Below, one piece after another: positions 39,968-40,055 of a stretch of DNA of 64,000 nucleotides. Numbering within the stretch: the stretch's first letter is position 1; the number at the start of each line of letters is the position of its first letter. Position numbers and translations under genes: made by a program. The notes under the pieces are model-generated. The model saw nothing but the letters and a program-made list of their open reading frames with translations, did no database searches and was not told the DNA's origin. Source of the stretch: Escherichia coli (GTDB taxonomy: Bacteria; Pseudomonadota; Gammaproteobacteria; Enterobacterales; Enterobacteriaceae). The stretch is from the NCBI RefSeq assembly GCF_003334355.1, contig NZ_QOWP01000022.1. The stretch is one strand, 5' to 3'.

Positions 39968-40055
39968 TCCCGAATTGACGGTTAACTCGGGCATTCCCCT
40001 CTCCCCTTCGGGCTGAGGGGAATGAGCCAGCGCCGCCTCAACCTTAACGCATAAC

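Follow-up and report, generated by a model that had tools for sequence, protein, structure and literature searches.

Palindromic repeats of the REP/BIME type are dispersed between genes, and their hairpins block 3' exonucleases and set stable mRNA 3' ends. In an intrinsic terminator, the gene is followed by a GC-rich hairpin, and intrinsic termination typically leaves the RNA 3' end roughly 7-9 nt from the stem. A further repeat family, BoxC, has been without an accepted function since the 1990s. Known also as PIT (potential intrastrand triplex) or TMECO, it has the consensus CCCTCNCCC N3-6 GGGNGAGGG N3 GGGNGAGGG and 23 copies in MG1655 (Holder et al. 2015, PMC4666352, where the 1990s descriptions of BoxC and the PIT papers of Maher and co-workers are cited), while a figure of 56 bp and 32 copies is cited in a Petrillo-type survey (PMC2267715). 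In vitro, oligonucleotides of BoxC/TMECO fold into intrastrand triplexes, and strains differ unusually often at TMECO loci, whose loss has been attributed to a proposed replication slippage; stable triplexes could not be demonstrated in vivo, not even at intact copies (Holder et al., PMC4666352). PIT elements have also been reported to lack terminator activity (PMC4666352, citing its reference 41). A different class of hairpin was delineated by Dar and Sorek (2018), in which Rho-dependent transcripts end precisely and directly past stable stem-loops devoid of a U-tail, followed by sequence richer in C than in G, and in which the stem-loops protect the RNA against PNPase and RNase II (PMC6061677).

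The element described here is a GC-rich hairpin in the 88-nt spacer (39968-40055) between the convergent genes yaeH and cdaR of Escherichia coli, and was studied within a window, namely the whole stretch of 64,000 nt that was analysed (Table 1). It is probably a decayed BoxC relic that now serves as the 3' stem-loop of the Rho-terminated yaeH mRNA. With BoxC it shares the C-block CCCCTCTCCCC, a 3-nt loop, a G-block ending in TGAGGGG, both conserved flanks and a strictly intergenic location; it appears to belong to the family of the pair found between hrpB and mrcB, and its sister-species orthologues are near-complete copies. It differs from BoxC in lacking 12 nt (most of block 2 together with loop 2), in being a single-copy variant and in being unlisted among the 23 copies of MG1655. 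The likeness to the stem-loops of Dar and Sorek (PMC6061677) comprises the missing U-rich tail, an RNA 3' end 3 nt downstream, the C-over-G sequence that follows and a bicyclomycin-sensitive read-through, whereas the yaeH stem-loop would come from the relic of a dispersed repeat rather than from unique sequence. As a dispersed palindromic repeat and candidate stabiliser of an mRNA 3' end it resembles REP/BIME, although it belongs to another sequence family. With the canonical intrinsic terminator it has in common a GC-rich hairpin at a gene end, but not the U-tract, the spacing between stem and RNA end or the independence from Rho. The yaeH element is thus a degenerate addition to a known family, apparently doing a known kind of job.

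Table 1. Positions (window coordinates) of the features discussed in the text
Feature	Position	Strand	Basis or remark
yaeH (DUF3461 protein, 128 aa)	39581..39967	+	Gene whose transcript ends at the hairpin; stop at 39967
Small second hairpin	39969..39991	-	8 bp in the - strand RNA, including G-U; terminator-like scan match and folds
Putative BoxC-derived relic: 5' flank, C-block, loop, fused G-block remnant, 3' flank	39981..40035	+	nhmmer; alignment A5
Core hairpin	39992..40024	both	RNA folds; exact single match
BoxC block 1 (C-block) CCCCTCTCCCC	39996..40006	+	C/A polymorphism at 40003
Fused G-block remnant GGGCTGAGGGG	40010..40020	+	Start of block 2 joined to end of block 3; AGAGGGTTAGGG (12 nt) missing relative to canonical
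C-rich, G-poor rut-like stretch antisense to the cdaR 3' end	40025..40124	+	C=36, G=14 per 100 nt; ratio 2.57
Steady-state yaeH RNA 3' end, K-12	40027 (MG1655 183649, - strand)	+	Term-seq; 3 nt after the stem; mapped via locus L005
cdaR	40056..41213	-	Convergent with yaeH; stop at 40056
Canonical BoxC/TMECO type A unit of the hrpB-mrcB pair (Holder copy 2)	59045..59078	+	nhmmer E=3e-9 (core profile), 4e-12 (extended profile)
Canonical BoxC/TMECO type B unit of the hrpB-mrcB pair (Holder copy 1), inverted relative to type A	59097..59129	-	nhmmer E=6e-7 (core profile)

Structure of the hairpin and its place in the spacer

The 33-nt sequence CATTCCCCTCTCCCCTTCGGGCTGAGGGGAATG has a single exact match in the window, beginning 25 nt past the yaeH stop and separated by 31 nt from the cdaR stop on the opposite strand. 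Genomes of O157:H7 and the B lineage match the 221 nt surrounding the site at 100% identity, and the window, itself from E. coli, is reversed in orientation with respect to MG1655. The RNA folds into an outer stem of 10 bp (39992-40001/40015-40024), a 2x2 internal loop (40002-40003/40013-40014) and an inner stem of 3 bp (40004-40006/40010-40012) closed by a UUC loop (40007-40009), with folding energies of -25.5 (+) and -27.2 kcal/mol (-). The corresponding z-scores are -2.9 (+) and -3.4 (-), and shuffled sequences folded equally well in 0/200 (+) and 2/200 (-) cases. The original prediction of a GC-rich hairpin after yaeH (39990-40025) without a convincing U-tract was confirmed: no U-tract follows the main hairpin on either strand, the tails being AGCCAGCGCC (+) and CCCGAGTTAA (-), and the main hairpin was not called by the terminator scan.

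On the - strand, the main hairpin abuts the small second hairpin (39991-39969), which is followed by ATTATTTACG/AUUAUUUAC. This smaller structure adjoins the yaeH stop codon and shares its 3' arm with the BoxC 5' flank; it pairs better in the RNA of the - strand, where its G-U pairs differ between alleles. Together with AUUAUUUAC, it may provide a candidate intrinsic-type end for the cdaR transcript. An argument from strand-specific G-U pairing was dropped as proof for the small hairpin, as RNA of the + strand can form a 9-bp version too, although an interrupted one.

No repeat is annotated in the MG1655 record at either the yaeH-cdaR or the hrpB-mrcB site, and Rfam scans (permissive for 39400-40600, at gathering threshold for the whole window) returned nothing at the yaeH hairpin or the hrpB-mrcB element; BoxC is not an Rfam family. 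A literature search on yaeH together with cdaR found nothing relevant. Elsewhere in the window, gathering-level Rfam matches comprise the CssrA sRNA (32882-32991, -), the t44 RNA (33830-33916, -) and the HtrA (degP) 5' UTR thermometer (42787-42832, -), known elements that are unrelated to the hairpin.

Relation to BoxC

The original prediction held that the yaeH hairpin and the hrpB-mrcB element share an arm motif and belong to one dispersed repeat family. The window contains 5 copies of the 9-mer CCCTCTCCC where 0.2 would be expected, 4 of them in the hrpB-mrcB element and one at the yaeH hairpin (39997-40005), although a single additional copy within 64 kb has no significance by itself (Poisson P ~0.18). 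K-12-type E. coli carries CCCTCTACCC in its place owing to a SNP at 40003 in the internal loop (C/A; K-12 = A), and the 3' arm of the yaeH hairpin reads GGGCTGAGGGG rather than GGGAGAGGG. With these caveats, the shared motif was confirmed. The element between hrpB and mrcB (59045-59129) corresponds to MG1655 164,547-164,631, the tandem inverted pair listed as TMECO copies 1 and 2 (Table 1, PMC4666352), so that the suggested comparison with boxC identifies this pair as BoxC itself; its type B unit also matches an extended profile described below (E=0.0015, 16.4 bits). Nor is the motif confined to the two loci. BLAST searches with the hrpB-mrcB element gave a median of 20 places per genome across 5414 E. 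coli genomes. A 48-nt query with the yaeH hairpin finds the orthologous site only (5426 E. coli genomes; median, 1 place), a result which, taken alone, would wrongly suggest that the element is not a repeat.

Direct comparison with the BoxC consensus places the yaeH hairpin outside the strict definition. The three-block regular expression, which matches the hrpB-mrcB unit and three other canonical copies, finds no match on either strand in the window copy, in K-12 or in any of the 3 sister-species orthologues, and the yaeH-cdaR site is not among the 23 MG1655 copies listed (PMC4666352). Block 1, CCCTCNCCC, is present in the window copy and absent from the K-12 allele. The two consecutive G-blocks needed for an intrastrand class II triplex are lacking, with one fused block GGGCTGAGGGG in their stead, and with its G-block missing the 33-nt form is predicted to be triplex-negative. 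A core profile was built from the 23 published core sequences; since MAFFT misaligned block 1, the blocks were aligned by hand and nhmmer was used instead of a covariance model. An extended profile was prepared from 12 BoxC copies with 16-nt flanks at 11 other loci, leaving the yaeH site out. The database for the two profiles was 335-340 kb.

A different picture comes from the orthologous site in other species. The yaeH loci were taken from 80 species genomes and their downstream spacers read, and in three sister Escherichia lineages the whole spacer is orthologous and holds longer versions of the element (alignment A4; Table 2). Their alignments span nearly the whole extended model. A BLAST search with the E. 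whittamii form retrieves canonical BoxC elsewhere in E. coli, such as the yijF-gldA copy CAGTCCCCTCTCCCCTTTGGGGAGAGGGTTAGGGTGAGGGGAACAGGCCAGC, and these matches show that the flanks correspond as well.

Table 2. Profile scores of the yaeH-cdaR element in E. coli and in sister lineages
Form	Sequence	Core profile	Extended profile
Escherichia sp. MOD1-EC7003	TCTCCTCTCCCCTTCGGGGAGAGGGTGAGGGGTAC	E=2e-5	E=6.3e-7, 27.2 bits
E. whittamii	GTCCCCTCTCCCCTTCGGGAAGAGGGTGAGGGGACC	E=3e-4	E=1.5e-8, 32.4 bits; model 3-61 of 67
Escherichia sp. E1V33	GTCCCCTCTTCCCTTCGGGGTGAGGGGAAC	E=0.22	E=4.8e-5, 21.2 bits
E. coli, window (K-12 = A at 40003)	TTCCCCTCTCCCCTTCGGGCTGAGGGGAATG	E=1.4, 8.1 bits	E=0.0022, 15.9 bits (genome-scale E ~0.03); alignment 39986-40019, envelope 39981-40034
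E. coli, K-12 allele		3.3 bits	E=0.067, 11.1 bits; not significant alone (335 kb)

Relative to the model, 6 nt (about TTAGGG) are missing in E. whittamii and MOD1-EC7003 and 12 nt (about AGAGGGTTAGGG) in E1V33, whose register is shared by the E. coli copy (alignment A5). In this register the window copy is identical to the yijF-gldA BoxC at 41/55 positions, flanks included, and to the hrpB-mrcB unit at 35/54. Its 5' flank, CTCGGGCAtTC/CTCGGGCATTC, aligns with the family sequence GCNCGNNCNGTC/GNGCNCGNNCNGTC (flanks from the 12 copies), and its 3' flank, GAATGAGCCAGC, with a sequence like the family's GAACAGGCCAGC. The similarity thus reaches past the short GC arms, and the E. whittamii, MOD1-EC7003 and E1V33 forms bridge the remaining distance to the full consensus. 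Membership of the BoxC family by descent, as a relic lying outside the strict definition, is supported by these alignments, in agreement with the proposed common family of the two elements.

A plausible history begins with a full BoxC unit in the yaeH-cdaR spacer of an Escherichia ancestor, composed of the 5' flank, CCCCTCTCCCC, a loop, GGGGAGAGGG, TTA, GGGTGAGGGG and the 3' flank. Loop 2 would then have been lost through short deletions between GGG repeats, the state seen in E. whittamii and MOD1-EC7003, and the rest of block 2 would also have been lost in the E. coli and E1V33 forms, leaving one C-block and one fused G-block. Block 1 would now pair with the remnant of blocks 2 and 3 in a plain stem-loop only; the reduction from three blocks to two removes the third strand of the triplex, and with it what BoxC needs to form an intrastrand triplex. 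GGG repeats border the gaps, a pattern that replication slippage would be expected to leave. From the family consensus we infer deletion rather than expansion, while the long forms could alternatively have arisen by tandem duplication of TGAGGG with substitutions. This one orthologous site would accordingly preserve a decay series, from the full unit through a 6-nt to a 12-nt loss, by slippage-type deletions of the kind proposed for TMECO instability. Catalogues based on a strict consensus (23 copies in MG1655) miss such decayed copies, which are recognisable only through their flanks and orthologues.

The locus is a mosaic produced by recombination among Escherichia, so a species tree cannot set the direction of the indels, and its use to polarise them was rejected. 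Compared with window positions 38081-41467, MOD1-EC7003 differs by 3.9% on the cdaR side and by 12.9% on the yaeH/yaeI side, a mosaic that implies recombination between species, the breakpoint lying close to the spacer. The long form is found in none of the complete E. coli genomes, where the best match (81% identity) is the short form. Within E. coli the spacer is dimorphic: an allele with the BoxC relic occurs in ~3566/5350 complete genomes and another in ~1784/5350. This second allele (B2-type; for example SE15, WL297) has an unrelated spacer, 35 nt shorter, in which a hairpin GGCCGGGTAAAGTCTCACCCGGCT is followed by GTAATTTTGT, a terminator-like site with its T-tract; it is common to E. albertii and the fetched locus L009, and resembles a Citrobacter REP-like unit at the same site. 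Among 80 other Enterobacteriaceae species, 13 have a match to the BoxC profile (E<0.01) in their yaeH-cdaR spacer; they include the three sister Escherichia lineages, the rest being members of Pseudocitrobacter, Enterobacter and Silvania. REP-like units such as GCCGGGTAAGGCGAAGCCGCCACCCGGC are found in that of other species (Citrobacter, Enterobacter).

The yaeH RNA 3' end and the competing explanations

Published RNA data for K-12, rather than for the strain of the window, place an abundant 3' end immediately after the hairpin. The Term-seq end at MG1655 183649 (-) is represented by 70,972 reads in LB at OD 0.4 and by 131,285 at OD 2.0 (Adams et al. 2021, PMC7815308, Supplementary file 1); the coordinate occurs three times in this three-tab file, and the flanking sequence printed with it is the yaeH hairpin. 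It is labelled 'antisense cdaR', lying 60 nt past the yaeH stop and thus over the 50-nt limit for a 'primary' end (PMC7815308), although it is more simply read as the end of the yaeH mRNA. A Rho termination region is reported at MG1655 183583 (-), with a score of 5.05 drawn from 800-nt windows and p=1.9e-7 (PMC7815308, Supplementary file 2), 66 nt downstream of the 3' end and at about position 40093 of the window. Upstream/downstream DirectRNA-seq coverage is 56/13 untreated and 99/116 with bicyclomycin (PMC7815308), such that the inhibitor raises read-through just downstream ~5-fold in K-12, which indicates that termination at yaeH is essentially Rho-dependent. The C/G ratio of the rut-like stretch (Table 1) compares with 1.0 in the last 100 nt of yaeH.

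On the strength of these data and of its likeness to the Dar and Sorek class, the hairpin is best read as a stem-loop that protects the 3' end of an mRNA terminated by Rho. RNA polymerase would read through it into the C-rich, G-poor RNA antisense to cdaR, where Rho would terminate transcription; 3'-to-5' exonucleases would then trim the RNA back to the hairpin, which would protect the yaeH mRNA. The position of the 3' end and the Rho dependence of termination are shown by the published K-12 data, and the trimming step is inferred. The opposition drawn in the original prediction, of a dispersed repeat rather than a simple terminator, proved to be a false dichotomy: the hairpin is indeed not an intrinsic terminator, but Term-seq shows that it defines the 3' end of the yaeH mRNA. 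The absence of terminator activity in PIT elements is compatible with a protective role and does not demonstrate it. Where E. coli lacks the relic, the site is occupied by another hairpin with a T-tract, which is consistent with this reading.

It is improbable that the hairpin itself releases RNA polymerase as an intrinsic terminator of the convergent yaeH and cdaR, perhaps in both directions. Such a function would suit a stable GC-rich stem-loop between convergent genes with a precise and abundant 3' end adjoining it, and the second - strand hairpin with AUUAUUUAC could end cdaR; in lineages without the relic, the site holds a hairpin and T-tract. Yet the main hairpin has no U-tract on either strand, its 3' end lies closer to the stem than the usual spacing (3 nt against roughly 7-9 nt), and with bicyclomycin the coverage downstream equals that upstream (116 vs 99, compared with 13 vs 56 untreated); the reported lack of terminator activity in PIT/BoxC (PMC4666352, citing reference 41) likewise speaks against it. 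Very little weight is given to the idea that the element acts at the DNA level like an intact BoxC, a non-B (triplex) structure stalling replication or promoting rearrangement, with the RNA 3' end incidental. The triplexes formed by BoxC/TMECO oligonucleotides in vitro and the variability of TMECO loci (PMC4666352) favour this idea, as do the dimorphism of the spacer (about two thirds vs one third of 5350 genomes) and its small indels and recombination among Escherichia. The E. coli copy, however, has one G-block only, where a class II triplex needs three blocks, stable triplexes in vivo lack evidence even for intact copies (PMC4666352), and the variability may be the legacy of an intact ancestor rather than a current activity.

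The origin of the hairpin could also be local, from an unrelated GC-rich stem-loop whose likeness to BoxC is convergent, C- and G-rich arms being a cheap way to a stable hairpin. This would be in keeping with a 9-mer match that chance by itself could produce (0.2 expected per 64 kb) and that the K-12 allele lacks, with the departure from the strict consensus, the core-profile E=1.4 and the single copy in E. coli, and with the aroP terminator, where CCCTCACCC/GGGTGAGGG-type arms occur in a plain hairpin followed by AAUAAUCUUU. Convergence is nonetheless quite unlikely given that the similarity reaches both flanks, outside the stem, that the three sister orthologues fit an independent BoxC profile at nearly full length (E=1.5e-8 to 4.8e-5) and that the E. 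whittamii form finds canonical BoxC by BLAST. The reading of the hairpin as a decayed BoxC relic with a role at the 3' end of the yaeH mRNA is therefore preferred.

BoxC hairpins elsewhere

Term-seq ends 3-5 nt past the stem are also present at other BoxC or BoxC-like hairpins, namely 847200, 3781065 (lldD), 3959467, 4231270 and 164636, which with 183649 make six such sites; they are in keeping with the role proposed for the yaeH hairpin. The sites at 847200 (-) and 4231270 (-) are degenerate BoxC copies outside the 23-copy TMECO list, with 30,000-130,000 and 42,000 reads, respectively. The end at 164636 (+), corresponding to the - strand at window position ~59040, is listed in Supplementary files 1 and 3 of Adams 2021; it is ~5 nt past the outer stem of the hrpB-mrcB pair, with 94 nt between it and the downstream mrcB, so that this compound palindrome marks an RNA end as well. 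It is possible, and is put forward here only tentatively, that BoxC hairpins are generally used as 3'-end-protecting stem-loops for Rho-terminated transcripts, as are REP elements, and that the yaeH relic persists because the RNA role needs the hairpin only, the triplex-prone third block being dispensable or counter-selected. A link between intact or decayed BoxC hairpins and precise RNA 3' ends of Rho-terminated transcripts would give this orphan family a testable, if mundane, role.

BoxC-type arms are also seen in the hairpin at the aroP 3' end, GCCCTCACCC-GTACA-GGGTGAGGGC, which is followed by AAUAAUCUUU. The yihR-yihS BoxC is complete in MG1655 and truncated after the GGGT of block 3 in E. 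coli N96, and is a second case of a BoxC copy decaying within E. coli. In Kosakonia, Phytobacter and related genomes (5 loci, 1386-1409), a BoxC-like, hairpin-only element is located upstream of yaeH, in the yaeI-yaeH spacer; it matches blocks 1-2 of the extended BoxC profile with E down to 6e-5 and has no third block, indicating that hairpin-only derivatives of BoxC occur elsewhere too.
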